A stretch of 64,000 bases of DNA from Candidatus Poribacteria bacterium (GTDB lineage: Bacteria > Poribacteria > WGA-4E > WGA-3G), in the NCBI GenBank assembly GCA_965215265.1, contig OZ244048.1:832001-896000 (forward strand). The letters run 5' to 3'. The position numbers and the translations under genes are program-made. Below are positions 4,066 through 60,730 of the stretch, in pieces (positions within the stretch are counted from its first letter, which is position 1; the number at the start of each line of letters is the position of its first letter). The notes beneath the pieces are model-generated. The model ran no database searches. It was not told where the DNA came from and saw only the letters and a list, made by a program, of their open reading frames with translations.

Positions 4066-6663
4066 CTACCGCCGTCCTCCTACCTGCCCAAGCAATTGAC
4101 GCAGATAATTCACCGGAATCGCAAAGTTCAGATTCTGACCTGCTATCATAGTTGACACCGTCACACCGATCACCTCACCCCGGCTATTTAACACCGGCCC
4201 ACCACTACTCCCCTTCGAAATTGCCGCATCAATCTGGATCCGTCTGGTACCATCCAACTTCCGTATCCCACTAACGATACCCTTAGAAAATGTGCCTTCC
4301 AAGAACCCGAGCGGATTCCCAGCCGCATACACCGCCTCCCCGACTTCCACCGCATCGCTGTCACCGAGAGGGAGTGCTTGTGTACTAAACTCCGCAACCG
4401 TGAGAATCGCTAAATCCTGTCGTGAGTCCATACCGACGAGCCCTGAGATGCGATAAGCGTGTTCCGTTCCTACTAGCTTCACATAGCCTCTCAGCACCCC
4501 TTCCACGACGTGCAGATTAGTCGCAATCAGGCCACGTCCAACGAAGAAGCCGCTGCCAGTGCTTAAGACCTGCCCGCTCCGATCCTCCATCATAATGAGC
4601 ACCGTGGCGGCGAGTGCCTTCCGCGCTATCTGCTGAGATGCCTGCGGTGTGGACACCCCTGCTCTTGAAGGCAGCACCCCCTGGGGCGTTTCTGGGGAAA
4701 TGAGAGGAAGATTCCAGAGTAGAATAGTGCCATCCCAACTCCCACTAGCGAGTCTCTTCCCATCTGCACTGAACGTTACGCTATAGACATCCCCCGTATG
4801 CCCGGTGAGTGTCGCTTTCTCACGCCCACTCACCGCATCCCATAGACGCACCGTGCTGTCCCAACTCCCACTGGCGAGCGTCCTACCATCTGGACTGAAC
4901 TCCACACTCCTGACCCAATCCGTATGCCCGGTGAGTGTCGCTTTGTGCCGCCCGCTCATAACATCCCATAGGCGCACCGTCTTGTCCCCACTCCCACTAG
5001 TGAGTGTCTGCCCATCCGGACTGAGCGCCACACTGAAGACACTGCCCGTATGCTCGGTGAGCGTGGCTTTCTCACGCCCACTCACCGCATCCCACAAGCA
5101 CACCGTGTTGTCCTCACTCCCACTCGCTAGCGTCCTGCCATCGGGACTGAATTCTACACTGAAGACACTGCCCGTATGCCCGGTGAGTGTCGCTTTCTCA
5201 CGCCCACTCACCGCATCCCATAGACGCACCGTGCTGTCCCAACTCCCACTGGCGAGCGTCTGCCCATCCGGACTGAACACTACACTCTCTACACCGTCCG
5301 TATGCCCAGTGAGTGTCGCTTTCTCACGCCCACTCACCGCATCCCATAGACGCACCGTATCGCCCTCACTCCCACTAGCGAGCGTCTTTCCATCGGGACT
5401 GAATGCTAAATTCGAGTACCACTTATGCCCAGTGAGCGTGGCTTTCTGTTTGCCACTCGCCGCATCCCATAGACGCACCGTCTCGTCATAACTCCCACTA
5501 GCGAGCGTCTTCCCATCCGGACTGAACACTACACTCTCGACATCCACCGTATGCCCAGTGAGCGTGGCTTTGTGCTGCCCACTCACCGCATCCCACAGGC
5601 GCACCGTCGTGTCCCGACCCCCACTAGCGAGCGTCTTCCCATCGGGATTGAACACTACACTCCTGACCCAACCCGTATGCCCAGTGAGCGTGGCTTTGTG
5701 CTGCCCACTCACCGTATCCCATAGGCACACCGTGTTGTGATAACTCTGACTAGCGAGTGTCTGCCCATCCGGACTGAGTGCTACCCTAATGACCCAATCC
5801 GTATGCCCGGTGAGTGTCGCTTTGTGCCGCCACGCTAGAGCTTTGTGCCGCCCGCTCACAACATCCCATAGGCGCACCGTCTTGTCCCCACTCCCACTAG
5901 CGAGTGTCTGCCCATCCGGACTGAATGCTACACTCCAGACAATGCACGTATGCCCGGTGAGTGTCGCTTTCTCACGCCCACTCACCGCATCCCATAGACG
6001 CACCGTCTTGTCCCGACTCCCACTGGCGAGCGTCTTCCCATCCGGACTGAACGCTACACTCTCTACACCGTCCGTATGCCCGGTGAGTGTCGCTTTCTCA
6101 CGCCCACTCACCGCATCCCATAGACGCACCGTATCGCCCTCACTCTCACTGGCGAGCGTCTGCCCATCCGGACTGAATGCTACACTCTCTACACCGTCCG
6201 TATGCCCGGTGAGTGTCGCTTTCTCACGCCCACTCACCGCATCCCATAGGCGCACCGTCTTGTCCCAACTCCCACTGGTGAGCGTCCTACCATCTGGACT
6301 GAACACTACACCCCAGACACTGCCCGTATGCCCGGTGAGCGTTGCTTTCTCACGCCCACTCACCGCATCCCATAGGCGCACCGTCTTGTCCCCACTCCCA
6401 CTGGCGAGCGTCTTCCCATCTGGACTGAACGCCACACTCCGGACACTGCCCGTATGCCCTACAAGCAGGGCCAGTTCTCTGCCGGTAAGCGCATCATAAA
6501 TCCAGATGCCTATCGAACTCGCAACCGCTAAACGGCTACCATCAGGAGAAAACCTTATTTCCTCTATCGTCCCTTTACCGAGACGGGCTATAGCTCCCTG
6601 CGGTAACTTCCATTTCGTGTAATCTTGGGCGCACACGGGCCCGTTCAACCACGTTTTTTTCAT
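4066..6663 (-). CDS. WD40-repeat protein (14 canonical + 1 degenerate repeat) with C-terminal trypsin-like serine protease
   Basis: LTGHTxxVxSVxFSPDGxTLASGSxDxTVRLWD repeats; protease triad TNLHV / DLAIL / GSSGGP; start MKKTW at 6663. Confidence 0.93.
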   Translation of the reverse strand: MKKTWLNGPVCAQDYTKWKLPQGAIARLGKGTIEEIRFSPDGSRLAVASSIGIWIYDALTGRELALLVGHTGSVRSVAFSPDGKTLASGSGDKTVRLWDAVSGREKATLTGHTGSVWGVVFSPDGRTLTSGSWDKTVRLWDAVSGREKATLTGHTDGVESVAFSPDGQTLASESEGDTVRLWDAVSGREKATLTGHTDGVESVAFSPDGKTLASGSRDKTVRLWDAVSGREKATLTGHTCIVWSVAFSPDGQTLASGSGDKTVRLWDVVSGRHKALAWRHKATLTGHTDWVIRVALSPDGQTLASQSYHNTVCLWDTVSGQHKATLTGHTGWVRSVVFNPDGKTLASGGRDTTVRLWDAVSGQHKATLTGHTVDVESVVFSPDGKTLASGSYDETVRLWDAASGKQKATLTGHKWYSNLAFSPDGKTLASGSEGDTVRLWDAVSGREKATLTGHTDGVESVVFSPDGQTLASGSWDSTVRLWDAVSGREKATLTGHTGSVFSVEFSPDGRTLASGSEDNTVCLWDAVSGREKATLTEHTGSVFSVALSPDGQTLTSGSGDKTVRLWDVMSGRHKATLTGHTDWVRSVEFSPDGRTLASGSWDSTVRLWDAVSGREKATLTGHTGDVYSVTFSADGKRLASGSWDGTILLWNLPLISPETPQGVLPSRAGVSTPQASQQIARKALAATVLIMMEDRSGQVLSTGSGFFVGRGLIATNLHVVEGVLRGYVKLVGTEHAYRISGLVGMDSRQDLAILTVAEFSTQALPLGDSDAVEVGEAVYAAGNPLGFLEGTFSKGIVSGIRKLDGTRRIQIDAAISKGSSGGPVLNSRGEVIGVTVSTMIAGQNLNFAIPVNYLRQLLGQVGGRR
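4720..6460 (-). repeat. Tandem ~126-bp coding repeats (WD40 units), near-identical at DNA level
   Basis: Recurrent gagtgtcgctttctcacgcccactcaccgcatcccatagacgcaccgt; about 4799-4881 is identical to about 5177-5259. Confidence 0.95.
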
Positions 6664-30366: not shown

Positions 30367-31451
30367 TGTTAGAACTTGAACTCTGCATCGCCGGCGTGAT
30401 GCTTATTGCCCTCATTCTCTATGTACTCACAGGCGGTGCCGATTTCGGAGGGGGTATCTGGGACCTATTTGCAACAGGCCCTCGTGCCAATGCACAACGT
30501 AAACTTATCACGCAAGCCATTGCTCCCATTTGGGAGGCAAACCATGTCTGGCTGATCGTTATTGTTGTCCTGCTCTTTGTGGCGTTTCCTATCGCTTTCG
30601 CTGCGATAAGTACCGCTTTGCACATTCCCTTAACCTTGATGCTGATGGGGATTGTTCTACGCGGGTCTGCGTTTATTTTTCGTACGTATGACATAAGGAC
30701 GAATATAGAAAACGAATTCGACAGCAACCCGGAAGCAGAGGAATTGGGGACTGCGTACCGCCGATGGAGCCGAGTGTTCGCCGTTGCGAGTATTATTACG
30801 CCTATTATGCTTGGGGTTACATTGGGGGCCATCGCCACCGGTACAATTCACGTCAACGTGGACAGCGGACAGATAGACACTGACTTTATCTCATCGTGGC
30901 TAGCCCCCTTTCCGTTTGCAATTGGCTTTTTTACGTTGACGCTCTGTGCCTTACTTGCTGCTGTTTATCTGCTGTTGGAAACGGAGGAATCGGCTTTGCG
31001 GGAAGATTTTCGGCGGCGCGCCCTCATCGCAGCCGGCAGTGTTGGTGCAATGGCATGGCTCAGTTTTATGCTCTCTGCTGATGGTGCACCCACAATTCGA
31101 CACGGGTTGAGCAGCAGCACCTGGGCACTGTTGTTTCACATATTCACAGCGGCTGTCTCTGTCACTGCTATTTGGGCAATCTGGAAACGTCTGTTTCGCC
31201 TCGCACGGACGCTCGTGGCTATACAGGTTACCCTGATTATCTTCGGCTGGGGATTGGCACAGTACCCGTATCTTGTTACGCCGGACCTCACCTTCTCAAA
31301 AGGTGCCGCACCGGATGTTGTACTGCGGCTTTTGCTGCTTATCATTGGGATAGGCTTTGTTGTCGTACTGCCTGCCTTCTACTATCTTTATGCCGTCTTT
31401 AAAGGGAAAAGACGCTTAAAAGATACGGATAAGCACCTGAACGCCAAATAG
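30366..31451 (+). CDS. cydB: Cytochrome bd oxidase subunit II
   Basis: GGADFGGG, PIWEANHVWL, LRG; coupled to cydA. Confidence 0.95.
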   Translation: MLELELCIAGVMLIALILYVLTGGADFGGGIWDLFATGPRANAQRKLITQAIAPIWEANHVWLIVIVVLLFVAFPIAFAAISTALHIPLTLMLMGIVLRGSAFIFRTYDIRTNIENEFDSNPEAEELGTAYRRWSRVFAVASIITPIMLGVTLGAIATGTIHVNVDSGQIDTDFISSWLAPFPFAIGFFTLTLCALLAAVYLLLETEESALREDFRRRALIAAGSVGAMAWLSFMLSADGAPTIRHGLSSSTWALLFHIFTAAVSVTAIWAIWKRLFRLARTLVAIQVTLIIFGWGLAQYPYLVTPDLTFSKGAAPDVVLRLLLLIIGIGFVVVLPAFYYLYAVFKGKRRLKDTDKHLNAK

Positions 31452-31516
31452 ACCTGAACGCTCTTTCGTCTATAGGAACCCGCTAAAGGCTGCTGCGATT
31501 TACAAACCTTTACAAA

Positions 31517-31726
31517 ACTCGCCAGTGGCAGGATAGGTTTTCTTGTCTCTCCTGCAAGGAGAGACAATGAATACCTTTTACCTGCCACCCACTGGGAGCC
31601 GCTTTATGCTATGCCTAAGGAATCTCCGACGAGATTTACACACGAGCGTAAAATCATAACCTTTGATGGTACAGAGATAGACAAAAATCATTACATACGC
31701 GGTGATAGTACGGAGATATACGAAAA
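31517..31726 (-). repeat. Composite interspersed repeat: 80-bp hairpin unit plus two core copies
   Basis: Perfect inverted repeat ttgtctctcc-tgcaa-ggagagacaa; ccttttacctgccacccactggg; reverse-strand cores at 31624-31687 and 31700-31726. Confidence 0.85.
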
Positions 31727-31779
31727 GATGAGATACACACAAAGACCTGAATGAAGAAAAAAAGGAAGAGCAACGGAAC

Positions 31780-32418
31780 TCAGCGTGTTACCGAGACAAC
31801 CTGTTTAAGCGCGTCTTCTTGTGCTGCCAACGCCTTCAGCTCTGGATTGAGCGTTATCGCGCGTGTCAGTGAATCACTGGCTTTTTCCAGTTGAGTCTCT
31901 AAGGCATAAGCACACGCGAGATTATAGTGCAGCAGCGCAACCTCCGGGAAAGTCTGGAGCGCACGTAGACACCTTTCACGTGCATCAGACGGGCGGTTCT
32001 GGCGGAGATATGCCGTTGTTAAATTGACATACCCTTCGACAATATCCGGTGCCATGTCAATCACTTTTTTAAAGCTCGCTTCGGCTTCTACATATTTCCC
32101 TGCATGCAGATACGCTTGACCAAGATTGTTGTAAGCAGACAGCTCTTTGGTAAAGAAGAGTGTCCGATTTTTATTCCGGATGGCACGCTGATACGCCGCA
32201 ATTGCCTGCTCAGCCTCGCCATTGCGCATCAAAAAAGACGCTTTCCTATAAAGGTCGTTGAATTCGGTTTGGTGGTGCCAAATCCACAGAAACAGCAATG
32301 TCACACCCAAGCAAAACGTCATGCAAATAATTCTGAACGTCTTATTCGTTGGAGCCAGTTCCTCAGGGCTAGTTTCTGTCGACGCGTTTTCTTGAGTCTC
32401 ATTTTTTTCAGGGGACAT
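31780..32418 (-). CDS. Membrane-anchored TPR protein
   Basis: N-terminal TM helix; AYNNLGQAY, HYNLACAYA. Confidence 0.85.
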   Translation of the reverse strand: MSPEKNETQENASTETSPEELAPTNKTFRIICMTFCLGVTLLFLWIWHHQTEFNDLYRKASFLMRNGEAEQAIAAYQRAIRNKNRTLFFTKELSAYNNLGQAYLHAGKYVEAEASFKKVIDMAPDIVEGYVNLTTAYLRQNRPSDARERCLRALQTFPEVALLHYNLACAYALETQLEKASDSLTRAITLNPELKALAAQEDALKQVVSVTR

Positions 32419-32492
32419 AAAATTATCTACCCTCACGTCAAAACGAATAGTTTTGAAAATTGAATTGATATGAAAAATACGAAGTATTCACC

Positions 32493-32614
32493 TTTTCGTA
32501 TATCTCCGTACCATCAAGGGTTTTTGTCTACAGGAGCCCAATGACGCTCTATACCCTTGATGGGGCTGAAATATACAAAAAAACATCAGCCGTGATGGGG
32601 CTGCAGTATACAAA
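32493..32614. repeat. Interspersed repeat cores: inverted pair (MITE-like) plus a third copy
   Basis: ttttcgtatatctccgtaccatcaagggt ... acccttgatggggctgaaatatacaaaa; gtgatggggctgcagtatacaaa. Confidence 0.85.
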
Positions 32615-32636
32615 CTTACACGAATGGAGGCAAGTT

Positions 32637-33692
32637 ATGAAAACTTACGGTTTTGGGATTATCGGGTGCGGAATGATTTCAGATTTTCACTCCGCCGCGA
32701 TAGCTGAATTAGCGCGTGGACACCTCGTTGCTGTCAGTTCCAGAAGTGCCGATAACGCAAAACGGCTCACTGACAGATACAATGTTGACAGCTACGCCGA
32801 TTACAACGAAATGCTCAAACGGGACGACCTGGATGTTGTGTGTATCTGTACGCCCAGTGGTGCACATTTAGAACCTGCAGTCGCTGCAGCTAAAGCAGGC
32901 AAACATGTTATCGTTGAAAAACCCCTTGAAATTACCTTACAACGCTGCGATGGGATTATCGAAGCGTGTGATGAAGCAGGCGTCCGACTGTGTGCTATTT
33001 TCAATTCTCGCTTTACCGAAAGCACACAACTCGTCAAATCCACTATTGAAAGTGGACGCTTCGGTAAGTTAACGTTAGGCGATGCTTATATCAAATGGTA
33101 CCGTTCGCAAGAGTATTACGACAGCGGCGGTTGGCGCGGTACGTGGCATTTGGATGGTGGTGGTGCACTCATGAACCAATCCATTCACGCTATTGACCTG
33201 CTTCAGTATTTCATGGGTCCCGTCAAAGCTGTACAAGCTTTTACCGATACATTAGCACACGAACGCATTGAAGTTGAAGATGCCGCCGTTGCCGTGCTCC
33301 GCTTTGAAAACGGTGCTTTGGGAGTCATTGAAGGCACAACCGCGACATACCCCGGCATGCTTAAGAAAACTGAAATCTCCGGCACAAACGGCACCGTTAT
33401 CCTTGAGGAAGAAGATATTGTCAAATGGGAATTTGACCCCGAACTTCCCGAAGATGCTGAGATTCGGAAAAACTTTGCACAAAAAACAGATACCGGCGGC
33501 GGTGCCTCCGACCCGCGTGCTATTAACCATGCAAACCACCGACGACAGATGGAAAACCTCATTAATGGGTTGGAAACCCACGCATCGCATCTCGTTGATG
33601 GACGTGAAGGTCGGAAAGCTGTAGAGATTATCCTCGCTATCTATCAATCGAGCCGGGAAGGTCGGATTGTCTCCTTACCTTTATCAACATAA
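32637..33692 (+). CDS. Gfo/Idh/MocA family oxidoreductase
   Basis: GIIGCGMI, VEKPL, DGGGALMNQSIHAID; GGAGG RBS before 32637. Confidence 0.93.
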   Translation: MKTYGFGIIGCGMISDFHSAAIAELARGHLVAVSSRSADNAKRLTDRYNVDSYADYNEMLKRDDLDVVCICTPSGAHLEPAVAAAKAGKHVIVEKPLEITLQRCDGIIEACDEAGVRLCAIFNSRFTESTQLVKSTIESGRFGKLTLGDAYIKWYRSQEYYDSGGWRGTWHLDGGGALMNQSIHAIDLLQYFMGPVKAVQAFTDTLAHERIEVEDAAVAVLRFENGALGVIEGTTATYPGMLKKTEISGTNGTVILEEEDIVKWEFDPELPEDAEIRKNFAQKTDTGGGASDPRAINHANHRRQMENLINGLETHASHLVDGREGRKAVEIILAIYQSSREGRIVSLPLST

Positions 33693-33732
33693 CGCGCCTA
33701 ATACCAACGGAGACGATTCCTCCTATGTTTCA

Positions 33733-33932
33733 GGATTCCCTCTCCTCTCCGTGCTCAGGCAGGAGAAGAAGTGGGAATCCCTTTTTTTTGTATATCTCCG
33801 TACCGTCAACGCTTATGTCGTGAATACCTGTGTGTAAATCTCGTCGGAGCCCTTCGATGTTTTGATTATTTTTGTCTATCTTGGTACCGTCAACGATTAT
33901 GTCGTGAGGACTCGTGTGTTGGCAGGTTCGGT
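33733..33932 (+). repeat. Composite interspersed repeat: hairpin plus two ~64-bp units
   Basis: ggattccc...gggaatcc; tgtatatctccgtaccgtcaacg.ttatgtcgtga...tgtgtaaatctcgtcggag; second unit ends ggcaggttcggt. Confidence 0.88.
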
Positions 33933-34012
33933 ATGGTGCCCACCCACCCAATTCCTTTCTAGGTTATGATTCATATATCCACAAATTGTGCAAAGGTGAT
34001 TGTCTAATATTA

Positions 34013-34996
34013 TTACGAATAATCAAACACGATTTTAATCGCCTCATCCTTTTTATTCAACGACATCTCAAATCCACGCTGTGCCTCAGTAAACGGTAAA
34101 TGATGCGTAATAATCGGGGAGACATCAAAGCGGCCTTGCAAGATCATATCCCTCGCTAACGGAAAATCGTTCTGCGCCTCTGGACCGACAGAGCCGATGA
34201 ATCGGAGGTTCTTCCGGAAAAAATCTGCAAAATCGAAGTTATAAACCTCATCATCCGGCACACCAAAAGCGAGAAGGGTACCTTCCTTTTTCAAAAGTTG
34301 GAGGCACTGGTTAATCGTTTCCGTCTGATGTCCAACTACCTCAATAACTAGGTCTGCCATTCTGCCATCCGTAAGTTCCGCTACCACTGCGACCGGGTCT
34401 TCTTGAGCAGCATTAATTGTGTGTGTGGCGCGCATCTGCTTAGATACATCAAGCCGGAAATCAACCAGATCTGTCGTAATCACCGCTCTCGCCCCGAGGT
34501 TGCTCAACATGTGCGTAAAGAGCAGTCCCATCGGACCTTGCCCAATAACCACCGTTACTTGGTTCAACAGGTTCCCCAATTTCCGACATGCCCAGACAAC
34601 AGTGCCAAGCGGCTGAGCCATCAATAGGCAGTCTTTACGTACACTCGTTACTGTTTCTTGCGAAAACGATAAGGGGATTATGGCATTCTCATGCGATAAG
34701 AAATATTCAGAAAGTCCTCCGATATCGCTTGGGAGCGCGAGCACCTCATCGCCCGGCTTAAAACGTTCCGATTTACTCTCAACCACAACCCCTATGGCTT
34801 CATGGATGGAGAGCCCCGCACGGAGCGGATAAGCTTCTTGTGGGGATTCAAGCACGAACCACGGCATATCGCTTCCGCAGATAGCACTATGAACGGTTTG
34901 AATCATCACCATGCCATCTGGATAATCCGCTAAGTCCGGTTTTTCTATCTCAATAATTTCAATCTGACGTGGTGCAACAATTTGTCCAACTTTCAT
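34013..34996 (-). CDS. Zinc-binding (MDR) dehydrogenase
   Basis: ICGSD, HEAIG, GQGPMG. Confidence 0.9.
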   Translation of the reverse strand: MKVGQIVAPRQIEIIEIEKPDLADYPDGMVMIQTVHSAICGSDMPWFVLESPQEAYPLRAGLSIHEAIGVVVESKSERFKPGDEVLALPSDIGGLSEYFLSHENAIIPLSFSQETVTSVRKDCLLMAQPLGTVVWACRKLGNLLNQVTVVIGQGPMGLLFTHMLSNLGARAVITTDLVDFRLDVSKQMRATHTINAAQEDPVAVVAELTDGRMADLVIEVVGHQTETINQCLQLLKKEGTLLAFGVPDDEVYNFDFADFFRKNLRFIGSVGPEAQNDFPLARDMILQGRFDVSPIITHHLPFTEAQRGFEMSLNKKDEAIKIVFDYS

Positions 34997-34998
34997 AC

Positions 34999-35195
34999 TT
35001 TCGTATATCTCCGTACCCTCAACGTCTGTCCTTTTGAAGGCTCGTGTGTAAATCTCGTTTTTTTGTATATTTCAGCCCCATCAAGGGGTTATGTATTGTT
35101 AAATCCGATATAAATCTCGTCGGAGGTTAACTCGGTATAGCATAAAGCGATAAGCCAAAACGGCAGTGGCGAGGCTCACCAATCCTGCCTGCAGG
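34999..35195 (+). repeat. Composite interspersed repeat: two tandem units plus flank
   Basis: Cores at 34999 and 35061; atagcataaagcg shared in inverted orientation with ~31600; ctcgccact on the minus strand. Confidence 0.88.
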
Positions 35196-35225
35196 AATCT
35201 ATAGACAAAAAAGGAACTCCGGTTA

Positions 35226-36197
35226 TCAGAGTGACCGGACAGCCTCTAAGACTTGCGAGTGTATTTTTCCGTTCGTCGCGACGATACCCCGGTTTTCAAC
35301 CATCCGTCTGCCAGCACCAAAATTCAGGAGCGCGCCGTTTGCATCGGTTACCATGCCCCCTGCCTCTTCTACAATAATGAGCCCCGCGGCGTGGTCCCAG
35401 ATGCATTCCCGGTAATCTGGAGACGCAGGATTTGGTAACCGGAGATAGAGCGAAATATCGCCTCGGGCGAGCAGAGCGTACTTCGCTTGGCTGTCCATCT
35501 GAATCGGGGGCACAGTCATCTTGAGTCGATCTGCGATTTCTGCATGTCTATCGCTGTCACCGTGTGTGGATTCAAAACTCTCTGCTAACCGGTCTGCCTC
35601 GTCTCCAACGTGCGCTTCTCCTAAGAAATTGCCGGCGAGTGAATACATCGCGGTCCCTTCGCCACGAACCGCCACAAAGAGGCAGCCGCGTTCCGATTCC
35701 GGCGCATTCAACCGTTGCGGTAGATTCGGACATGCTAAGATACCGAGCGCGACTTCACCATTAACAATTTCGGCTAACGCAATCGCGTACTGGTCGTGGC
35801 GGAGGAAGCCTTTGGTACCATCAATCGGATCGAGTGTCCAAAAGTTTTTCCCCACGCAATCCGTGCCTCGATTAATCCATTCGCAGAGTACTTCAGGCGA
35901 TGCGGAAGAGCATCCTGACTGCACCTGACGGGAGTTAACGTAGTGGACAACACGTTTCAAAAGGTCCGGATTGGCTTTTAGCGATGCCGCATCCTCTTCT
36001 GCAACAATAGCAGTTCCTGGAAACGCATCGCCAATCGCCTTGCAAATAAGTGCCTGCGCCCCGAAATCTGCTACCGTGACCGGGCTCCGATCGGCTTTTT
36101 GAAGAGAATCTGTAGAGACTAATTCAGTTTCAACCTGTTGACAGAGTTGGACAGCTTTTAGTACCGCGGCAACCGCGAGTTGTTTCTTAGATGGCAT
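35226..36197 (-). CDS. 3'(2'),5'-bisphosphate nucleotidase, HAL2/SAL1-like
   Basis: SPVTVADFGAQA, WTLDPIDGTKGFLR, MDSQAKY, ECIWDHAAG. Confidence 0.92.
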   Translation of the reverse strand: MPSKKQLAVAAVLKAVQLCQQVETELVSTDSLQKADRSPVTVADFGAQALICKAIGDAFPGTAIVAEEDAASLKANPDLLKRVVHYVNSRQVQSGCSSASPEVLCEWINRGTDCVGKNFWTLDPIDGTKGFLRHDQYAIALAEIVNGEVALGILACPNLPQRLNAPESERGCLFVAVRGEGTAMYSLAGNFLGEAHVGDEADRLAESFESTHGDSDRHAEIADRLKMTVPPIQMDSQAKYALLARGDISLYLRLPNPASPDYRECIWDHAAGLIIVEEAGGMVTDANGALLNFGAGRRMVENRGIVATNGKIHSQVLEAVRSL

Positions 36198-36202
36198 TTT
36201 CC

Positions 36203-36283
36203 TTTTTTGTATCTTTCAGCCCCATCAAGGGTTATGTATTGTTAAATCCGATGTAAATCTCGTCGGAGGTTAACTCGGTATAG
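36203..36283 (+). repeat. Interspersed repeat unit near-identical to 35061-35140
   Basis: tttcagccccatcaagggttatgtattgttaaatccgat.taaatctcgtcggaggttaactcggtatag. Confidence 0.92.
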
Positions 36284-36358
36284 TCTTTTAAAATCAAAAC
36301 ATCAGTCAGCTCAGCCGATCTATAGATCGCCTTTGATGTTTAGATTGATAATAAAAAT

Positions 36359-37003
36359 TTAAAAAAGTGTCATTCTCGGCAGTTCACCTGCCTCAAGTTG
36401 TTTCCGCCGTGCCTCGGCGATATCGTCAATCACAATTTGCCGCGTCACCCTAAAATTCTCTCCTTCTTGACGCATGACATAAGCCGGGTTAAACGTTGCC
36501 ATAGCAAATGGGGCATACAGCGTATCTGTAAACCAGATACCGCGTTCTTCTGTAATCCGGAACTGCCGATGAATCAGTACTTTCGCCGCAGGGCTTCCCA
36601 TGCATAAAATTACCGAGGGATGGAGGAGGTACAGCTCACCATCAAGCCATTTGGAACAGGCCTTGATTTCTGATGCCTTCGGCGGACGGTTTTTTAGCAC
36701 ACCGCCCCTGAGCCCTGCTGCACGGCATTTAATGATATTGGTTATCCAGAGTTCACTGCGCGTTAATCCATTGATGATCAGCACTTCATCCAGAAAATCA
36801 CCAGCTGGCCCCGAAAACGGAACCGTCGTCTGATTATCTGCCGCAGAAGGCCCCTCTGCAACGATGACCAACTTCGCCTCAGTATCTCCATAACCAAAAA
36901 CGACGTTTGCCCGCGTCTCTGACAACGTGCAATCCGTACAAACGCTTGCCCGTATTTTGAGCGTATTCATCGCTTGATGACGTTCGATGCTGGAATCTGT
37001 CAT
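36359..37003 (-). CDS. Uracil-DNA glycosylase family 4-like protein with variant motifs
   Basis: CTDCTL, PFSGPAG, TNIIKCR, NRPP..SEI.AC; motifs read AEGPS and TFNPA. Confidence 0.85.
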   Translation of the reverse strand: MTDSSIERHQAMNTLKIRASVCTDCTLSETRANVVFGYGDTEAKLVIVAEGPSAADNQTTVPFSGPAGDFLDEVLIINGLTRSELWITNIIKCRAAGLRGGVLKNRPPKASEIKACSKWLDGELYLLHPSVILCMGSPAAKVLIHRQFRITEERGIWFTDTLYAPFAMATFNPAYVMRQEGENFRVTRQIVIDDIAEARRKQLEAGELPRMTLF

Positions 37004-37027
37004 AGTCCGTCTGCTGTTCTATTCTAC

Positions 37028-39601
37028 TTATAAACTACCACCGGATGTTTTCGAGAACCGGATGTTGGCATGAACGAGTTTCTCTGTTCTCCCGAATGTG
37101 ATTCGGCAAATAGGCTTATCCCAACTGTATCGATAATCGCTTCCATAAGCAGACACACCTATCGGCAGATAATCCGCTGGTACATGAATGAAACAGGTCC
37201 CTTCTGCCTGCCGGATCGGTTTGCAAACCAGGAGATAACTTTCACTTTGCGAATCCCACCCTGCAGAGAGAATTTCAACACTTCCTTGGGTATAGTGCAT
37301 ATCTGTCGCAAGCAATTGCGGCGTAGGAAAGGCTTCCCGTAATGAGAGGAGTTTAGCAGAACGCGGTGAGATGTTCAACAACGTGAGGCTGCTAGAAACG
37401 GTGCCCAAGTATTGTCGCATCCAAAAATCATGTACGAGGTAGTCTTTTGATTCCGGCAAACCCAAGGCATCCAAGTCAAAGTAAGCATCATCCTCTTTGT
37501 CGTCCCAATTAAAGATAGCGACGAGGTGGTTTGCCAAGGTTGATTCTCTTATGTTATACGGACCGGATTGCGCGTCCATTTTGAGATGCCAAACACGCGG
37601 GAAAGGGTTCTCATAAAGATCTACAGGGGTGGCCGCTTTACCAAGCAGCGGGAAGAGTTTTGCTAACAGTTCAGCACGGTGCGGTTTGAGAGTTGCGACG
37701 GCATCTCCACAGAAGAGCGCGCCACCGCTTAAGGCTGCCGCAGTCATTTCGAGAATCGCTTCATTGATCGGACGCGGCTCGTCCACCGCAAGTTCGCCAA
37801 AGACGTGACTCCATAACACATTATGCTCACTGAGATGCACCGCGTGACGACTAATTCGGTGCTTAGTCCCCCGCTGACGATGCCAAAAGTGGCTCCCATC
37901 TGTCGGCATGGTGCCTTTCTCGCCACCGACGAGCGGGAAATTCAACGGAAAACCCCCGATGCAGGGCGCAGTAATTACATTGTACCCCGCAACCAGCACT
38001 GCTTTATCAGAAACGCCGCTATCTCGCACAGCATCTTTTACTAACTGGAGCGCTAACCGATAGAGCTGAATAGAGGTGAGCGAACTATCATGCCATCTCA
38101 AATTCCGCGCGGATGAGAGAACCGTGGTGTACCCCGAAAAATCGGCTTTTATCAAATCGTACTTCCATTCGCTGATTATCTGTTTAATCTGTTGACGAAT
38201 ATACGCTTGTGCATCCGGGTGTGAAACGTCTAATAAACCACCCTCTTTTTCACCAGGCATCACCCTACGTACCAAAACTGGGGATGCTGATGCCTTCCGG
38301 GGCCGACCTCGTTTTGAATTGGATAAGAAGTTCTCCCTGCTTTGCAGGGATGAATTCTTACCGCGCGATGAGCGACGGGAGGGAGGAGCAACTTCTTGTA
38401 GGAATAAGCGTGGGTGCTTTTGAAACAATTCAGACTTAACTGCTTCACAAAACAGGTTAATTCGGAGGCTTGTCTTGAAGCCTTTGCTCCGAATTTCGTT
38501 CACCACAGCAGACATGCCGTCTGGAAAATCTTCAGCATTGAGGACCCACGTACCATCGAAGTTGCGGGTACCCTCGATAGCATCCAGATGAATGTAATCT
38601 ATACCGCCAGGGGCACCCGGCTGAAAGAGCGGATTTTGGACAATCAGGTCGGTTTGCTCCAAGATGGATTTCGCAGTCAGATAAGGTTTATCTGGTGCCG
38701 CACCACGTTTCGTGCCCCTTCCAACTTGCGACGCAAGACTCCAGCCACTGATAATCTGTGCAGTCCTTTGTGCCTTATTCTGTGCCGCTAATAGTGCCGT
38801 ATAGTGCTCATAACTTGAGGTAGCATCCTTTGAAAAATTAAGGTAAGCTGACTCCGACGTTATTTCTTCGCCCTGACGACACGAGCGGCCCTCACACTTA
38901 TGATAGAGTGACCACAAGTTAACGCTGGAAACGTCATCAGCCTTTTGGTAACCCACTTGAACGTGGGGCCACCACTGTTCCGTCGTCAGGAAACCAAAGA
39001 CGAAAGCACGTTTGCTCTCCGTATCGTGAAGCACGCCGTTATGACAAAGATCAATGGCATCCTCTTCACTAAGTTGAAAACCGTCATAGAGTTTTTGAAA
39101 TCCACCAGGAACTGTCGGGAGCATATTGAGAAAAATATAATAATTCGATGGGGGTCCTCCTAATTGCAATCCTCCATTCTTCGCTGAAAGCCCTAACAGC
39201 GTTAAACTGTCTAATTCAATCGATGCCTCTTTTAAATTTTCAACTCCCACTTTCAGTTCGATATGCGGTTCGGACAGAGAGCAGCTCACATAGATATTTA
39301 AGCGGATACCTTTTCCTTTCGCTTCGTGAGAAAATCGTACCTGTTGGACGTGTTTATCCGTGGCATCAGGACCAGACGGAACGACATCTGTCATAAATTC
39401 GCACGTCCCAGTGTCCTCTGTTGTGACAACCGAACCATCACCGAGGGTGAGCTTCGTGTATCCGTTCTTGATAATCGTGTACCCTGTTCCATCAATGTAA
39501 TCCCATGTCCCTTTTGAAAGATTGAACTCAATCCGAAATTCCTTGTGGTTTATCACAGCAAGGTTGCCCTGCCGTGAGACTGCTAAATCACTTGCTTTCA
39601 T
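37028..39601 (-). CDS. Alpha-galactosidase-like (GH36/27 clan) protein, divergent
   Basis: FPDGMSAVVNEIRSKGFK, LDVSHPDAQAY, YDLIKADF, VAIFNW, VHDFW. Confidence 0.65.
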   Translation of the reverse strand: MKASDLAVSRQGNLAVINHKEFRIEFNLSKGTWDYIDGTGYTIIKNGYTKLTLGDGSVVTTEDTGTCEFMTDVVPSGPDATDKHVQQVRFSHEAKGKGIRLNIYVSCSLSEPHIELKVGVENLKEASIELDSLTLLGLSAKNGGLQLGGPPSNYYIFLNMLPTVPGGFQKLYDGFQLSEEDAIDLCHNGVLHDTESKRAFVFGFLTTEQWWPHVQVGYQKADDVSSVNLWSLYHKCEGRSCRQGEEITSESAYLNFSKDATSSYEHYTALLAAQNKAQRTAQIISGWSLASQVGRGTKRGAAPDKPYLTAKSILEQTDLIVQNPLFQPGAPGGIDYIHLDAIEGTRNFDGTWVLNAEDFPDGMSAVVNEIRSKGFKTSLRINLFCEAVKSELFQKHPRLFLQEVAPPSRRSSRGKNSSLQSRENFLSNSKRGRPRKASASPVLVRRVMPGEKEGGLLDVSHPDAQAYIRQQIKQIISEWKYDLIKADFSGYTTVLSSARNLRWHDSSLTSIQLYRLALQLVKDAVRDSGVSDKAVLVAGYNVITAPCIGGFPLNFPLVGGEKGTMPTDGSHFWHRQRGTKHRISRHAVHLSEHNVLWSHVFGELAVDEPRPINEAILEMTAAALSGGALFCGDAVATLKPHRAELLAKLFPLLGKAATPVDLYENPFPRVWHLKMDAQSGPYNIRESTLANHLVAIFNWDDKEDDAYFDLDALGLPESKDYLVHDFWMRQYLGTVSSSLTLLNISPRSAKLLSLREAFPTPQLLATDMHYTQGSVEILSAGWDSQSESYLLVCKPIRQAEGTCFIHVPADYLPIGVSAYGSDYRYSWDKPICRITFGRTEKLVHANIRFSKTSGGSL

Positions 39602-39688
39602 ACATGGTTCCTTCCATGGCGTTCATACTTTAGCAATATAGAGTTGTCTTCGCTATCCATCAAATTTCCTATACACATATTGGCTTTA

Positions 39689-39786
39689 TTCGTATATCTC
39701 CGTACCGTCAACGTTTATGTCGTGATTACTCGTGTGTTGGCAGGTTCGGTTTTCTTTATCTCTCCTTATAGGAGAGATAAAGAACC
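39689..39786 (+). repeat. Interspersed repeat unit plus perfect hairpin (possible terminator)
   Basis: cgtatatctccgtaccgtcaacgtttatgtcgtga...ggcaggttcggt; ttctttatctctcct-tat-aggagagataaagaa. Confidence 0.88.
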
Positions 39787-39813
39787 TAACAGACAACAGT
39801 GTCTGTGCGAAGT

Positions 39814-40551
39814 TCAAACTGCCCAGCAGTGAATCAGGAGCGTGGGTTCCTTACCGGTCTGCCGCAGTGAAAAGGTATCATGTGGACTGAGGAAAATCAC
39901 ATCATGTGGTTGGAGTTTTGAAGTCTCTGAAATTAAAGTCACGTCGGCGCACCCATCTTTTAAAACATAAATCGATTCTCTGGCCAACGGTTCGTGGGTA
40001 AACTCGCCACCTATACCAAGTTGAATGTAATCTAATGACAAATGGACAGAACCTTTTTCGGGAGAGACGACACTCCGCCAAGAGGAAGCAGAACCTGAAT
40101 CCGGAAATTTTCCAAAAACCGGACCGCTTCGTGCCATATTAATCACTTGCACATTGCTCCGATGCCCCTGCTGCGGTGTCGGAATCTCATTCGGCGTATC
40201 CCGTTCACCCCGGTACAGTGCCATATCCGGAGGGGCTTGAAAACTGATTAACCGTGCCATCTGCTCTGTCGTGTTGACCGTGCCATGGATTTCACCTGCT
40301 GGCACAAAAATCACATCCTCTGCACTAATTGGCGTATAGACGTTTCCTTGCCGAATTGCGCCACCGCCTTCCAACACCACAATTGCATCTTCTGAAACAT
40401 CGTGATAGTGCTGTGTGAACTCTTGGCCAGGGGCGTGATGCCCATGGTTCAACGTCAACTGTTTAGAACCCATATCCGGGTGCACAACCCGCCAGTTTTT
40501 TCCTTTGCCCATTTGAAACGGCATTCCGCTCTGAAGATTCAGAATTTGCAT
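39814..40551 (-). CDS. Bicupin domain protein
   Basis: HYHDVSED and FVPAGEIHG in domain 1; second degenerate cupin. Confidence 0.8.
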   Translation of the reverse strand: MQILNLQSGMPFQMGKGKNWRVVHPDMGSKQLTLNHGHHAPGQEFTQHYHDVSEDAIVVLEGGGAIRQGNVYTPISAEDVIFVPAGEIHGTVNTTEQMARLISFQAPPDMALYRGERDTPNEIPTPQQGHRSNVQVINMARSGPVFGKFPDSGSASSWRSVVSPEKGSVHLSLDYIQLGIGGEFTHEPLARESIYVLKDGCADVTLISETSKLQPHDVIFLSPHDTFSLRQTGKEPTLLIHCWAV

Positions 40552-41255
40552 GTTTCATCCTTTTTGATTGCACCCCGGCTGTGGAAGCGCGATGCGAACT
40601 CAGCGACGCGATAAAACGATAAAACCGTATCCCCGTAACGTTCCTGCCGATAGCAGTCTAACGTCCCCACCGTCCCTGGAAGACAAGTCTGCCTTGAATG
40701 TTCGACAGCCAACGTACCGTTGGCGTGAAGCAATTCTGCCGATGCAAGTCGTGCTAAACATGCAGAATATAGCCCCGCGTTATACGGCGGATCGAAATAG
40801 ATAAATTCAAATCCAGTAGCAGGACTCGCCACCCATTGGGGAAGGGAAGTTCTCCCCGCAAACGGGGAGGAATCCCCTTTCCTTTTACCTGCCACCCACT
40901 GGGTTGTCTGAACCCGTCGGTTACCAAGTAAGATGAGTGCCTTTTCGATATCGCACTGCAGAAGTTTCACTTGTGAATGCTCACGAGTCAAGCTGCAAAC
41001 TTGAAGGTTGCGTTCAATAATGCGTGTACACCTACGATCGCTTTCAACAAACGTCACATGTTTAGCACCGCGGCTCAACGCCTCAATCCCGATGCTCCCC
41101 GTACCAGCACAAAGGTCGAGAAAGTGGGCTCCAACCATCTGTTCCCGGAAAATGCTAAAAATAGATTCTTTGACTCTATCGGCAGTTGGTCTCACCGTTC
41201 TGCCCTTCGGTGCGATTAAGTGCTTTCTTCTAAATTTACCTGCGATAACCCGCAT
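40539..41255 (-). CDS. rsmD: 16S rRNA m2G966 methyltransferase with ~27-aa in-frame insertion
   Basis: MRVIAG, RPTADRVKESIF, LDLCAGTGSIGIEALSRGA, DPPY, YGDT. Confidence 0.93.
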   Translation of the reverse strand: MRVIAGKFRRKHLIAPKGRTVRPTADRVKESIFSIFREQMVGAHFLDLCAGTGSIGIEALSRGAKHVTFVESDRRCTRIIERNLQVCSLTREHSQVKLLQCDIEKALILLGNRRVQTTQWVAGKRKGDSSPFAGRTSLPQWVASPATGFEFIYFDPPYNAGLYSACLARLASAELLHANGTLAVEHSRQTCLPGTVGTLDCYRQERYGDTVLSFYRVAEFASRFHSRGAIKKDETCKF

Positions 41256-41299
41256 GTTTTCACCATGATGCCCCCCTGCAGCTCACATTGTACAGGACA

Positions 41300-42622
41300 C
41301 TATAACGTGCGTGTCGGGAATAACTCTTCAATAACGGAACCGTCGTTCACGACCCGGATTGGCCGTCCGGAACGTGAGTAGTTTTCCTCATCACCGTTGA
41401 TGCCTAACGCGAAACAGAGCGATGCAAACAGATCTGGCACACCTACAGGTGCAGTCAAGACCTCTACACCCTCTTCGTTCGTGCTCCCGACAACCTGTCC
41501 ACCCCGAATGCCGCCGCCTGCAATAACCGCAGACCAGCCGTTTGTGTGATGGTCCCGTCCGTCGTTCATGTTAATGCGCGGTGTCCGTCCGAATTCACCC
41601 AGCCATAAAACGACAGTCTCGTCAAGCAGATGCCGTTCAGCTAAATCCTTAAGAAGCATTGCAAACGCCGGATCGACGACGCTCAGCAGTTCTTTAGTCC
41701 TATCAAAGTTGTTTTCGTGCGTATCCCATCCGTCCAGACTGACCTCCACAAAACTCACCCCAACTTCAATCAACCGGCGGGCCATCAGGCAGCCTTGTCC
41801 AAACTTGTTCATGCCGTACGCCTCACGGATAGCGATAGGTTCCTCGGTGAGTTGGAACGCACGGATGTTCGCCGAGTTTATCAACTCATCTGCCTTTTTA
41901 TAAATTGCTTCGTGGGCTTCTGTGCTACGTCCAGTACGCTTCGAGATGAAATCCTTCTCAATCGCGTTTAGCATCCGCAAACGTTCCCGAAACCGATGCG
42001 TATCCATCTGCGGTGGGTAACTGAGATCTTCAACCGGTTGCATCGGGTCATTCACCACAAACGGGTCGTGCGTAGCACCCAGGAAACCGCCAGAGTATGT
42101 CGGGGAATTGATATTAACACACTGAGGGAGATTAGAACCGCTATCCTCCAGGTAGTAAGAGGTCAGTGAGCCTAAAGTCGGGTGCCGCACCGCGCCGCCA
42201 GGCGCATAACCGGTGTGGAGCAGATACCGCGCACGTTCATGATTCCCTTCACGAGAAGACATCGAGCGAATGATAGCGTAATGATGCGCTTGCTCAGCAA
42301 CAAGCGGCAGATGTTCGGAAACTTGTATCCCTTCAACACTTGTCGGAATCGCTGCGAATGGACCGCCATTTTTGCTCCCTGGTTTTGGGTCAAACGTATC
42401 TAATTGGCTGGCACCGCCGCTCATAAAAAGTACGATGCAGTGTTTCGCCCGCCTCAGCGCCGCCTCAGGCTGCCCAGAAGCACTTGAACCGAAGTGTTGC
42501 ATCGCAACAAGACCAAGAAAACTGCTGAAACCTTTCTTGAAAAATACTCGACGTGAAATTTCTTTATGCCATAATTCCGGGGTATCATATTCAGGAATCC
42601 ACAATTCTGATTTCATCTTCAT
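41300..42622 (-). CDS. DUF1501 domain protein with Tat-like signal
   Basis: SRRVFFK, GGASQLDTFDPKP, GWDTH, GEFGRTP, GRDHH. Confidence 0.92.
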   Translation of the reverse strand: MKMKSELWIPEYDTPELWHKEISRRVFFKKGFSSFLGLVAMQHFGSSASGQPEAALRRAKHCIVLFMSGGASQLDTFDPKPGSKNGGPFAAIPTSVEGIQVSEHLPLVAEQAHHYAIIRSMSSREGNHERARYLLHTGYAPGGAVRHPTLGSLTSYYLEDSGSNLPQCVNINSPTYSGGFLGATHDPFVVNDPMQPVEDLSYPPQMDTHRFRERLRMLNAIEKDFISKRTGRSTEAHEAIYKKADELINSANIRAFQLTEEPIAIREAYGMNKFGQGCLMARRLIEVGVSFVEVSLDGWDTHENNFDRTKELLSVVDPAFAMLLKDLAERHLLDETVVLWLGEFGRTPRINMNDGRDHHTNGWSAVIAGGGIRGGQVVGSTNEEGVEVLTAPVGVPDLFASLCFALGINGDEENYSRSGRPIRVVNDGSVIEELFPTRTL

Positions 42623-60237: not shown

Positions 60238-60730
60238 GGTGCTAACCCAAAAGTCTCACAAAATAACGGTTGCTAGAGACACCCTCGGCACACCTCTCAA
60301 TTCGCAGGAGACGTGACTCATTTTACCACATCTCCTACTTAAGAAAAAAAACGAAAGTGAACATACATTCCCCCTTTTGAATCCAAAACAGGGATAAACC
60401 TGAAGCAGCCTGAATCGCCTTAGGGCTTCTCGTTTTTCGAGTGAAGGGCAACGCGAGACAGATTTGCCATTGAAATCTGAAAATTGCCCTTTTGAAATAG
60501 AATTTTTTATAATCATACACCCTAAATTATCTTTTGTCACATTAAAAATTGAGAAAAAAAGCGTTTTTTTTCGGAGAAATCATCATTTTTCAACATTTTA
60601 TGCTAAAAAAATACGAATAAGGGTTACGCGTTTTTTAGTCTATAGGGACTAAAGAATCCCCCGGATAACCGACGCTGTGCTGCAAGACGGAACACTACTA
60701 CCCTCTCCACCTGCAAATTCTATTCACGCG

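Follow-up and report, generated by a model that had tools for sequence, protein, structure and literature searches.

A genome-wide family of modular palindromic repeats, probably of mobile type, with one cluster downstream of cydB in a Candidatus Poribacteria genome

What kind of sequence occupies the intergenic gaps between cydB and a cupin gene in a Candidatus Poribacteria genome, and how would it have come to be there? The locus lies in a 64-kb stretch of DNA (hereafter the window, C1:832001-896000; repeat coordinates are given as window positions) of G000, a metagenome-assembled genome of a sponge symbiont comprising a single contig of 4.83 Mb. A reading made from the letters of the window alone had noted a repeated core of ~28 bp, combined with several tails. 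It proposed either a non-autonomous modular element resembling bacterial interspersed mosaic elements (BIMEs) or MITEs (miniature inverted-repeat transposable elements), or a family of structured RNA motifs. We find that the repeat family is statistically overwhelming and is of the kind represented by BIMEs, MITEs, and repetitive extragenic palindromes (REPs). The repeats of the window probably form one cluster of a family that extends over the whole genome, is lineage-restricted, and consists of small modular palindromes that are non-autonomous and of mobile type.

Scanning the window with the 27-nt core pattern TTTTYGTMTATYTCMGNNCCRTCAASG, with up to three mismatches allowed, returned 10 matches, three on the minus strand and seven on the plus strand, all within 31661-39713; 100 shuffles gave a mean and a maximum of 0. 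Hereafter, the core strand is the strand reading TTTTYGT…, and the E strand is its complement, ending in …ACRAAAA. A diverged eleventh core (32590-32616, minus strand; previously given as 32590-32614) is 88% identical to its neighbor (family D3), bearing out the earlier count of at least 11 copies, whose start positions were off by 0-2 nt. The twelfth, starting at 32521 on the plus strand, belongs to a third core type overlooked by the sequence-only reading and completes the set of 12 window cores. Mismatch scans with all core types located no further core in the rest of the window, in agreement with the remark that the other ~55 kb held none. Elements are present in six of the seven intergenic gaps from cydB to the cupin gene, so the description of most of these gaps as filled also holds. 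The tails reported alongside the core are genuine multi-copy modules: genome-wide, TGTAAATCTCGTCGGAG has 348 matches at up to two mismatches (reversed-pattern control, 0), TGGCAGGWTMGGT has 195 at up to one mismatch (control, 22), and the motif ATAGCATAAAGMGG has 22 (control, 6).

Across the whole genome, the TTTTYGTMTATYTCMGNNCCRTCAASG pattern at the same mismatch threshold identified 396 cores (216 forward and 180 reverse), and its reversed-pattern control identified none. The third core type, scanned as TTTYGTMTACWGSAGCMCNAT at up to two mismatches, has 339 genome matches (control, 0), and the union of all types is 688 cores. Core-holding repeat runs total 67 kb, or 1.39% of the genome; the genome repeat map was built from 14-mers, an 11-mer version having been discarded as too permissive (28% of the genome covered). 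Gene calls outside the window come from our own crude caller (longest open reading frames [ORFs] of at least 100 amino acids, selected greedily), with exceptions stated where relevant. By this caller, 306 of 396 cores are mostly intergenic, in a genome whose non-coding share is 14%. Within the set of 396, the gaps between cores have a median of 1971 nt and a mean of 12205 nt, and half are shorter than 2 kb versus 15% expected. Clusters with at least eight cores number 25 and hold 360 of the 688 cores, the window's cluster ranking about 13th. The local cluster described earlier is therefore real, but it is one of 25 in a genome-wide family of 396-688 cores. A similar qualification applies to the suggestion of local hopping or gene conversion. 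The best-matching partner of a core lies less than 5 kb away in 13% of cases versus 1% in permutations (maximum 3.3%), but more than 100 kb away in 79%, so local duplication is real but a minority route. Whole units are also arrayed head to tail, as 5 × 122 nt and 3 × 60 nt, at C1:1578933-1579543 and 1494070-1494250; the near-identity of their copies suggests recent tandem amplification.

The basic unit is ~60 nt long and consists of a T-run followed by YGTM (TTTTCGT…), the 27-nt core, a linker, and the end …AAATCTCGT. Units are found singly and also as parts of a complete element of ~170 nt, a long imperfect palindrome in which core, linker, central hairpin, linker, and inverted core follow one another. 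The order is core, ~24-nt linker, (A)AATCTCGTCGGAG, a loop of 25-40 nt, CTCYGACGAGATT(T), linker, and inverted core, with the central hairpin taking the form ATCTCGTCGGAG – loop – CTCCGACGAGAT. Pairs of neighboring cores up to 400 nt apart reflect this layout, 130 being convergent versus nine divergent. The span is 160-180 nt in 66 of the convergent pairs, and those in a second mode at 220-260 nt include a nested insert. As in MITEs, the elements are small (~60-170 nt), lack coding capacity, number in the hundreds (396-688 cores), and end in terminal inverted repeats of 27 nt. These repeats are imperfect because core types do not agree in their middle parts. Inverted repetition is confined to the outer and inner parts of the two end cores, while on the same strand one end carries CTCC and the other GGAG.

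Nesting follows a recurrent pattern. ATCTCG directly precedes 29 cores and TCTCCG directly precedes four, placing new units within a resident hairpin's stem, at …ATCTCGT^CGGAG; many right flanks show the mirror image, …^ACGAGATTT. A second palindromic element of 71 nt (TGGCAGG…CCTGCCACCCACTGG) also sits within the hairpin stem, for example at 31525-31595. Both the new units and the 71-nt element would thus appear to insert preferentially into the hairpin stems of resident copies, and such insertion would give rise to the nested and tandem mosaics.

Comparison of homologous sites points to insertion. The congener G001, which belongs to the same genus as G000, keeps the gene order glycoside hydrolase, UDG, inositol monophosphatase, and alcohol dehydrogenase (ADH). 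Its UDG/inositol-monophosphatase and inositol-monophosphatase/ADH spacers measure 18 and 67 nt, both without elements, versus 161 and 229 nt for the element-filled spacers of the window. Within G000, a paralogous coding pair (~90% identical) offers an empty and a filled version of one site, where an insert of ~86 nt corresponding to a half element ends the ORF. A third case lies in a methyltransferase ORF of the window, which has ~31 extra in-frame residues (about 108-138) derived from a module of the GGCAGG type. This module splits the Pfam match to Cons_hypoth95 into two stretches and is absent from all three relatives checked (G001, G002, and G004). Their orthologues align to residue 107/113 and resume at 139/147/148, with only 6-21 nt between. 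Presence and absence at homologous sites are thus documented by the paralogue pair, the G001 spacers, and the methyltransferase module. Together with the nesting and the genome-wide absence of intact members of the transposase families searched, the spacers and the paralogue pair support the non-autonomous modular element of the earlier proposal. We envision that elements entered intergenic spacers, including those inside conserved operons, and occasionally coding sequence.

The distribution among relatives is patchy. In 40 relatives, the core pattern gave only two single matches, each with three mismatches, equal to the reversed-pattern control level. The hairpin motif TGTRNAWCTCGYCRGAG, scanned at up to one mismatch in 176 Poribacteria genomes, has 302 matches in G000 and 298 in G004, a member of the same family but another genus (control, 2 each); G001 has eight copies and all remaining genomes have 0-12 (controls, 0-6). 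Units of G004 and G001 share with those of G000 the TTTTCGT terminus, the ATCTCGTCGGAG hairpin, and the tandem and palindromic layouts, but their inner cores are quite different. In sum, ~300 or more copies occur in two genera and eight in the congener, while counts in the other 173 genomes do not clearly exceed background. The patchy phylogeny fits a mobile family better than a conserved regulatory site, and it offers a marker of recent repeat expansion or transfer. Beyond Poribacteria, a hairpin 16-mer gave 19 single matches in IMG/VR, judged to be at chance level without calculation, and two 22-mers gave no matches in JGI metagenomes.

The elements are strongly oriented with respect to their neighbors. 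For cores of types A and B, the E strand (mRNA sense) is co-directional with both flanking genes in 242 gaps versus 74 against (p ~1e-21), and in composites the A/B end faces the downstream gene in 61 cases versus 22. The third core type shows no orientation bias (119 versus 124). An orientation filter acting after insertion would leave A and B cores facing the downstream gene. The bias is equal on both arms of a poorly resolved GC skew. The cumulative GC skew of G000 has no clean two-arm origin/terminus pattern; genes show no leading-strand bias (1751 versus 1903 on skew-derived arms).

This polarity extends to start codons. In 45 of 396 cores, an ORF of at least 80 amino acids opens with an ATG situated 0-4 nt beyond the A-run; such an ATG lies within 30 nt of the A-run in 95 of 396 versus 3 of 396 in the opposite direction. 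The core-to-ATG distances are bimodal (45 cases for 0-4 nt, 11 for 5-9 nt, and 17 for 10-14 nt); at larger distances, a separate AGGA or GGAG was often seen by eye between element and ATG. Abutment at 0-4 nt depends on what the E strand carries. Among 688 cores, it was found for 33 of 267 with GGAG, 16 of 266 with neither motif, and two of 155 with CTCC, and the contrast between GGAG and CTCC has a Fisher odds ratio of 10.8 (p 2.7e-5). At 5-30 nt the classes are alike (33/267, 32/266, and 25/155, respectively). Start codons were borne out in all four genes checked (ADH and three others), whose orthologues align from residue 1, and the 16S rRNA of G000 has the canonical anti-Shine-Dalgarno end. 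Where an element reaches a start codon, its end is almost always a core with GGAG on the mRNA strand, 12 nt ahead of the ATG. From these sequence statistics, we infer that insertions at a start codon may survive mainly where the element end can replace the ribosome-binding region. Some copies would then probably have assumed the role of ribosome-binding regions. GGAG-dependent abutment is a testable case of a repeat end acting in that capacity.

Several observations weigh against the reading of mobile elements whose ends serve at start codons. Base by base, comparison with G001 leaves a deletion there and an insertion in G000 indistinguishable, and only one clean empty/filled pair was found within the genome. 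No target-site duplication, which the sequence-only reading had suggested looking for, was visible in that pair or, by eye, in ~30 composites. No parent element or cognate transposase was found in G000 among Y1_Tnp, TnpB, rve, IS110, DDE_Tnp_1, and DDE_3, the families to which the search was limited, other transposase families and recombinases not having been searched. With respect to start codons, gene starts come from the crude ORF caller except in the four genes checked against orthologues. The element GGAG stands at −16 from the ATG versus a peak at −10 to −13 for the genome's own GGAG, so it would be a sub-optimal Shine-Dalgarno site. An old Shine-Dalgarno-like motif persists at the far side of the element in four of 41 cases versus a background of 15%, given crude boundaries. 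Furthermore, avoidance of an anti-Shine-Dalgarno-like CUCC beside the start codon would give the same statistics.

Might the elements instead be selected mainly as RNA or DNA structures, as proposed for REP, BIME, and ERIC repeats? Hairpins that stabilize, process, or attenuate operon mRNA would give a functional explanation for polarity and clustering. Consistent with this idea are the strong polarity of A/B cores relative to transcription (242 versus 74), the enrichment in co-directional and convergent gaps (53 convergent versus 26-27 divergent), and the 22 terminator-like sites of the region versus 9.3±3.2 expected. The summary by Croucher et al. 2011 (PMC3049150) describes orientation-dependent effects of ERIC, BIME, Correia, and BOX repeats on transcripts. 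Complete composites also fold as long hairpins (mean −50.7 kcal/mol; z −4.0 versus mononucleotide shuffles, n = 71), although any palindrome must fold strongly. However, the central stem of 89 hairpins, with 932 Watson-Crick, 70 G-T, 28 A-C, and 38 other pairs, displays no compensatory substitutions; its two variable positions read C-G once and A-T once. The excess of G-T over A-C pairs is found on the strand that is mostly antisense to genes, and this mostly antisense strand is the more stable one in 38 of 48 composites. Half units (two exact copies and two consensus-like strings) fold no better than shuffles, nor does the ADH spacer of the window read as mRNA (z −0.72), and an Rfam 15 scan of 31000-41500 gave one chance-level match (E 0.51). 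Structure would also leave the coding-sequence insertions and the patchy phylogeny unexplained. We thus regard selection on structure as unlikely, and the structured-RNA option of the earlier proposal is not supported. Were the core instead the promoter or operator motif of a large regulon, inherited vertically, its frequent position near gene starts and the TTGAYG within it would be accounted for. Such a regulon is nevertheless highly improbable, given that sigma-70-like sites are not enriched (12 versus 11.1 expected) and that TTGAYG is separated from TATAC by 9 nt, as read from the sequence. In addition, a transcript start would find no space where the 45 element ends lie 0-4 nt from an ATG, the congener's orthologous spacers lack the core, and copies occur in convergent gaps and inside ORFs. 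In favor of misassembly, short-read contigs break at the repeats; the sequence-only reading had itself named local misassembly as a reason to abandon its proposal. Here, contigs from all four independent DNA runs, from four studies, cross the gene-core junctions at the same places (e.g., 34007-35068). Bins with repeats reach 10- to 40-fold the depth of unique ones, in line with the presence of many copies, and we give almost no credence to an artefact.

A different origin would be descent from elements of the IS200/IS605 or RAYT type (Y1 tyrosine/HUH), REP/REPIN- or PATE-like, that moved as single strands and whose transposase has been lost from the genome. The hairpin-based architecture, the lack of a visible target duplication, and nested insertion at one defined site beside a hairpin are in keeping with such descent. 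The YGTM termini (CGTC in units of G004 and G001 and in the third core type; complementary strand GTAGACG) recall the GTAG and CGTC tags of REPs described by Di Nocera et al. 2013 (PMC3733652), and relatives with related units carry Y1_Tnp genes (34 matches in G001 and three in G004). Against this, Y1_Tnp and TnpB, like rve and IS110, have no matches in G000, with controls responding in each search. Copy numbers are inverse, G001 having 34 Y1_Tnp matches versus ~8 units and G000 having none versus 300-690 units. Nine Y1 loci examined have no hairpin motif at their ends, and the sole unit lies inside tnpB, in two copies of one insertion sequence (IS). The elements, at ~170 nt with loops of 25-40 nt, also exceed REPs, which measure 20-40 nt and have loops of 4-5 nt (PMC3733652). 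To see whether the elements are IS200/IS605-derived PATEs, we compared six IS ends from G001 and G004 with G000 by blastn-short, and matches near cores were no more frequent than with shuffled queries, which likewise speaks against such descent. A RAYT gene (PF01797) flanked by repeats was also looked for and gave no matches in G000, although control genomes respond. Taken together, an origin from Y1 transposons seems improbable.

Other candidates for a mobilizing enzyme fared no better. DDE_Tnp_1 is represented in G000 by four fragments of ~24 bits and DDE_3 by broken fragments, none of which adjoins a core. The YhgA/Rpn-like PD-(D/E)XK family "Transposase_31" is the most multi-copy gene family of G000 (23 copies), but not one of these copies has a core within 300 nt, and the family occurs in 132 of 176 Poribacteria genomes, most of them without the repeat. 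The sequence-only reading had seen no transposase in the window; the searched families indeed have no intact member in the whole genome, and the RAYT or IS transposase with matching ends that it suggested seeking was not found among them. Returning to the mobile-family interpretation, the copies now seen may be fossils, or an unrecognized enzyme may move them, because the transposase families searched are neither intact nor beside elements. A more specific proposal, which we hold to be rather unlikely, combines an unrecognized mechanism that reads the TTTTCGT terminus and the ATCTCGT^CGGAG stem site with a GGAG end that would be a portable translation-initiation region, replacing the native ribosome-binding sites of dozens of conserved genes. 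At least two Poribacteria genera have elements that share both sites despite differing in their inner cores, and no known transposase is associated with them. As separate observations, Transposase_31 copies are partly in tandem (e.g., C1:3218098-3221736, L045), and G001 has IS200/IS605-type loci (e.g., L101-L106), with a G001-type repeat unit within the tnpB frame at positions 2022-2098 of L104 and L106.

No such repeat family has been described for Poribacteria in the literature searched, which did not include subscription literature, and several known systems invite comparison. BIMEs of Escherichia coli are mosaics of REP (or PU) units plus other motifs. Like them, the Poribacteria elements build intergenic mosaics by combining a few short motif types in variable ways; their palindromic units alternate in orientation, lie in transcribed spacers and at 3' ends, and are present in hundreds of copies. 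Unlike them, the units are larger (~60 nt, with a 170-nt composite), the loop is long, no RAYT match exists in the genome, and the sequence is unrelated. To our knowledge, abutment to start codons is not a described feature of BIMEs. Correia elements (CREE/NEMIS) of Neisseria and other bacterial MITEs are 100-170 nt long, with terminal inverted repeats of ~26 nt and hundreds of copies. The size, inverted ends, copy number, and long hairpins of the present family match these, and, by analogy, co-transcription with neighboring genes and altered downstream expression may be further points of likeness. Correia elements duplicate a TA target; no target duplication is seen here, and modular nesting and an end resembling a ribosome-binding site are particular to the Poribacteria family. 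Rickettsia palindromic elements also occur in frame within coding genes, as does the methyltransferase module at 40824-40934, but most Poribacteria copies are intergenic, with one in-frame case verified.

In the neisserial intergenic mosaic elements (NIME), RS units are flanked by dRS3. Di Nocera et al. (PMC3733652) assign dRS3 to CGTC-1 REPs and Rickettsia palindromic elements to CGTC REPs, in a scheme that divides REPs into two super-families tagged by GTAG or CGTC. CGTC REPs are described there as having no dedicated transposase, and Neisseria CGTC-1 units as clustering in mosaic intergenic regions. The Poribacteria family resembles NIME in its large clustered mosaic intergenic regions, in units delimited by a short conserved palindromic motif that doubles as the insertion site, and in a CGTC-type tag with no dedicated transposase known. 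It differs in the sequences and sizes of the motifs and in also forming discrete 170-nt palindromes with inverted 27-nt ends. A REP in the narrow sense is a 20-40-nt unit with a terminal unpaired GTAG or CGTC tag, a stem of 8-9 bp, a loop of 4-5 nt, and a short tail (PMC3733652). The present units have a YGTM tag after a T-run, but they are ~60 nt long, with loops of 25-40 nt or, by eye and folding, ~12 nt, so they were not classed as REPs. BOX elements of Streptococcus pneumoniae (boxA, boxB, and boxC) are likewise modular, with variable module numbers and stable folds, and orientation-dependent effects on downstream genes have been reported, according to Croucher et al. (PMC3049150). BOX is nevertheless unrelated in sequence and host phylum, and the BOX termini resemble those of an insertion sequence, ISSpn2 (PMC3049150), whereas no such parent was found here.

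Two kinds of array were considered and set aside. For CRISPR, the tandem arrays of G000 (5 × 122 and 3 × 60 nt) have identical "spacers," and spacing elsewhere is irregular. Integron attC arrays consist of promoterless cassettes, each with an attC of RYYYAAC…GTTRRRY boxes, and are not syntenic with core operons. An attC array or a cluster of attC sites lacking an integrase (CALIN) does not agree with flanking genes that form a syntenic block conserved in G001 or, by eye, with the CCRTCAAS/STTGAYGG motifs, which misfit the attC boxes; an integrase was not searched for. With the present family, a candidate phylum whose members are uncultivated sponge symbionts gains a large, well-delimited set of small interspersed repeats. 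Given that it breaks short-read assemblies at every copy, knowledge of the family helps in assembling and comparing these genomes.

Within the window, the genes around the repeats were assigned by Pfam as cydB, a TPR protein, a GFO/IDH/MocA oxidoreductase, a zinc ADH, an inositol-monophosphatase-family protein, a UDG, a melibiase-like protein (weak match), a cupin, and the Cons_hypoth95 methyltransferase. Located 3' of cydB is a composite element at 31500..31740 whose core strand is the minus strand. It contains cores 31661-31687 and 31700-31726, the 3' stem or tail of its hairpin at 31624-31640 (TGTAAATCTCGTCGGAG copy at 31624), and a ATAGCATAAAGMGG copy at 31599. The 5' stem is split (…CGCCA^GAGCC…) by the nested 71-nt palindromic "GGCAGG" element at 31525..31595, to which no strand was assigned; its end motifs are multi-copy genome-wide, with a TGGCAGGWTMGGT copy at 31526. 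Contigs of three runs (X5, X6, and X8) show a form without this element, in which 31524 is joined to 31596, although this form may derive from other copies in view of the repeated sequence on both sides of the joint. Four cores of mixed strand occupy 32493..32616, in the gap from which the TPR and GFO/IDH/MocA genes diverge, namely 32493-32519 (plus), the third-type core from 32521 (plus), 32555-32581 (minus), and 32590-32616 (minus), each facing the gene on its own side. A convergent gap contains two tandem units on the plus strand (33785..33932), made up of core 33785-33811, tail 33833-33849 (TGTAAATCTCGTCGGAG), core 33869-33895, and a GGCAGG-type left end at 33920-33932 (TGGCAGGWTMGGT).

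The spacer between the inositol-monophosphatase and zinc-ADH genes holds a plus-strand composite at 34998..35213, comprising cores 34998-35024 and 35060-35086, a tail at 35109-35125 (TGTAAATCTCGTCGGAG), and a loop motif at 35137-35150 (ATAGCATAAAGMGG). Its first core lies one base from the ADH start codon (34994-34996, minus strand), its second is nested after …AAATCTCGT, and a degenerate inverted core end was discerned by eye near 35196-35212. The UDG/inositol-monophosphatase spacer carries a plus-strand element at 36204..36340, with core 36204-36230 situated 6 nt from the start codon and a tail at 36252-36268 (TGTAAATCTCGTCGGAG); a 55-nt stretch of this element is 98% identical to the copy at 35086-35140. 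The plus-strand element at 39687..39790, 86 nt upstream of a glycoside-hydrolase-like gene on the minus strand, consists of core 39687-39713, a GGCAGG-type left end at 39738-39750 (TGGCAGGWTMGGT), and then a small hairpin. Finally, the palindromic GGCAGG-type module at 40824..40934 (minus strand) is in frame within the Cons_hypoth95 (RsmD-like) methyltransferase ORF at 40539-41255 (minus strand). It includes an exact 23-nt repeat of 31574-31596 (family D9) and a run of repeated 14-mers at 40824-40906.

High-multiplicity 14-mers also surround a small hairpin-like sequence at 38324-38350, inside the glycoside-hydrolase-like ORF 37028-39601 (minus strand), which may be a further in-frame palindromic module within a coding gene. 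A short run of 14-mers that occur at least six times in the genome lies at 60565-60599. A tandem array at 4733-6459, with a period of 126/378 nt, ~4.5-8.7 copies, and 78-88% matches, is presumably the coding region of a repeat domain and has no relation to the repeat family. Elsewhere in G000, restriction-modification genes are highly multi-copy, with Type ISP, Eco57I-like, and N6_N4 methylases present in 3-10 copies each (L037, L052, L055, L056, L058, L062, and L064), and the FGE-sulfatase, WD40, and LRR protein families are also multi-copy.

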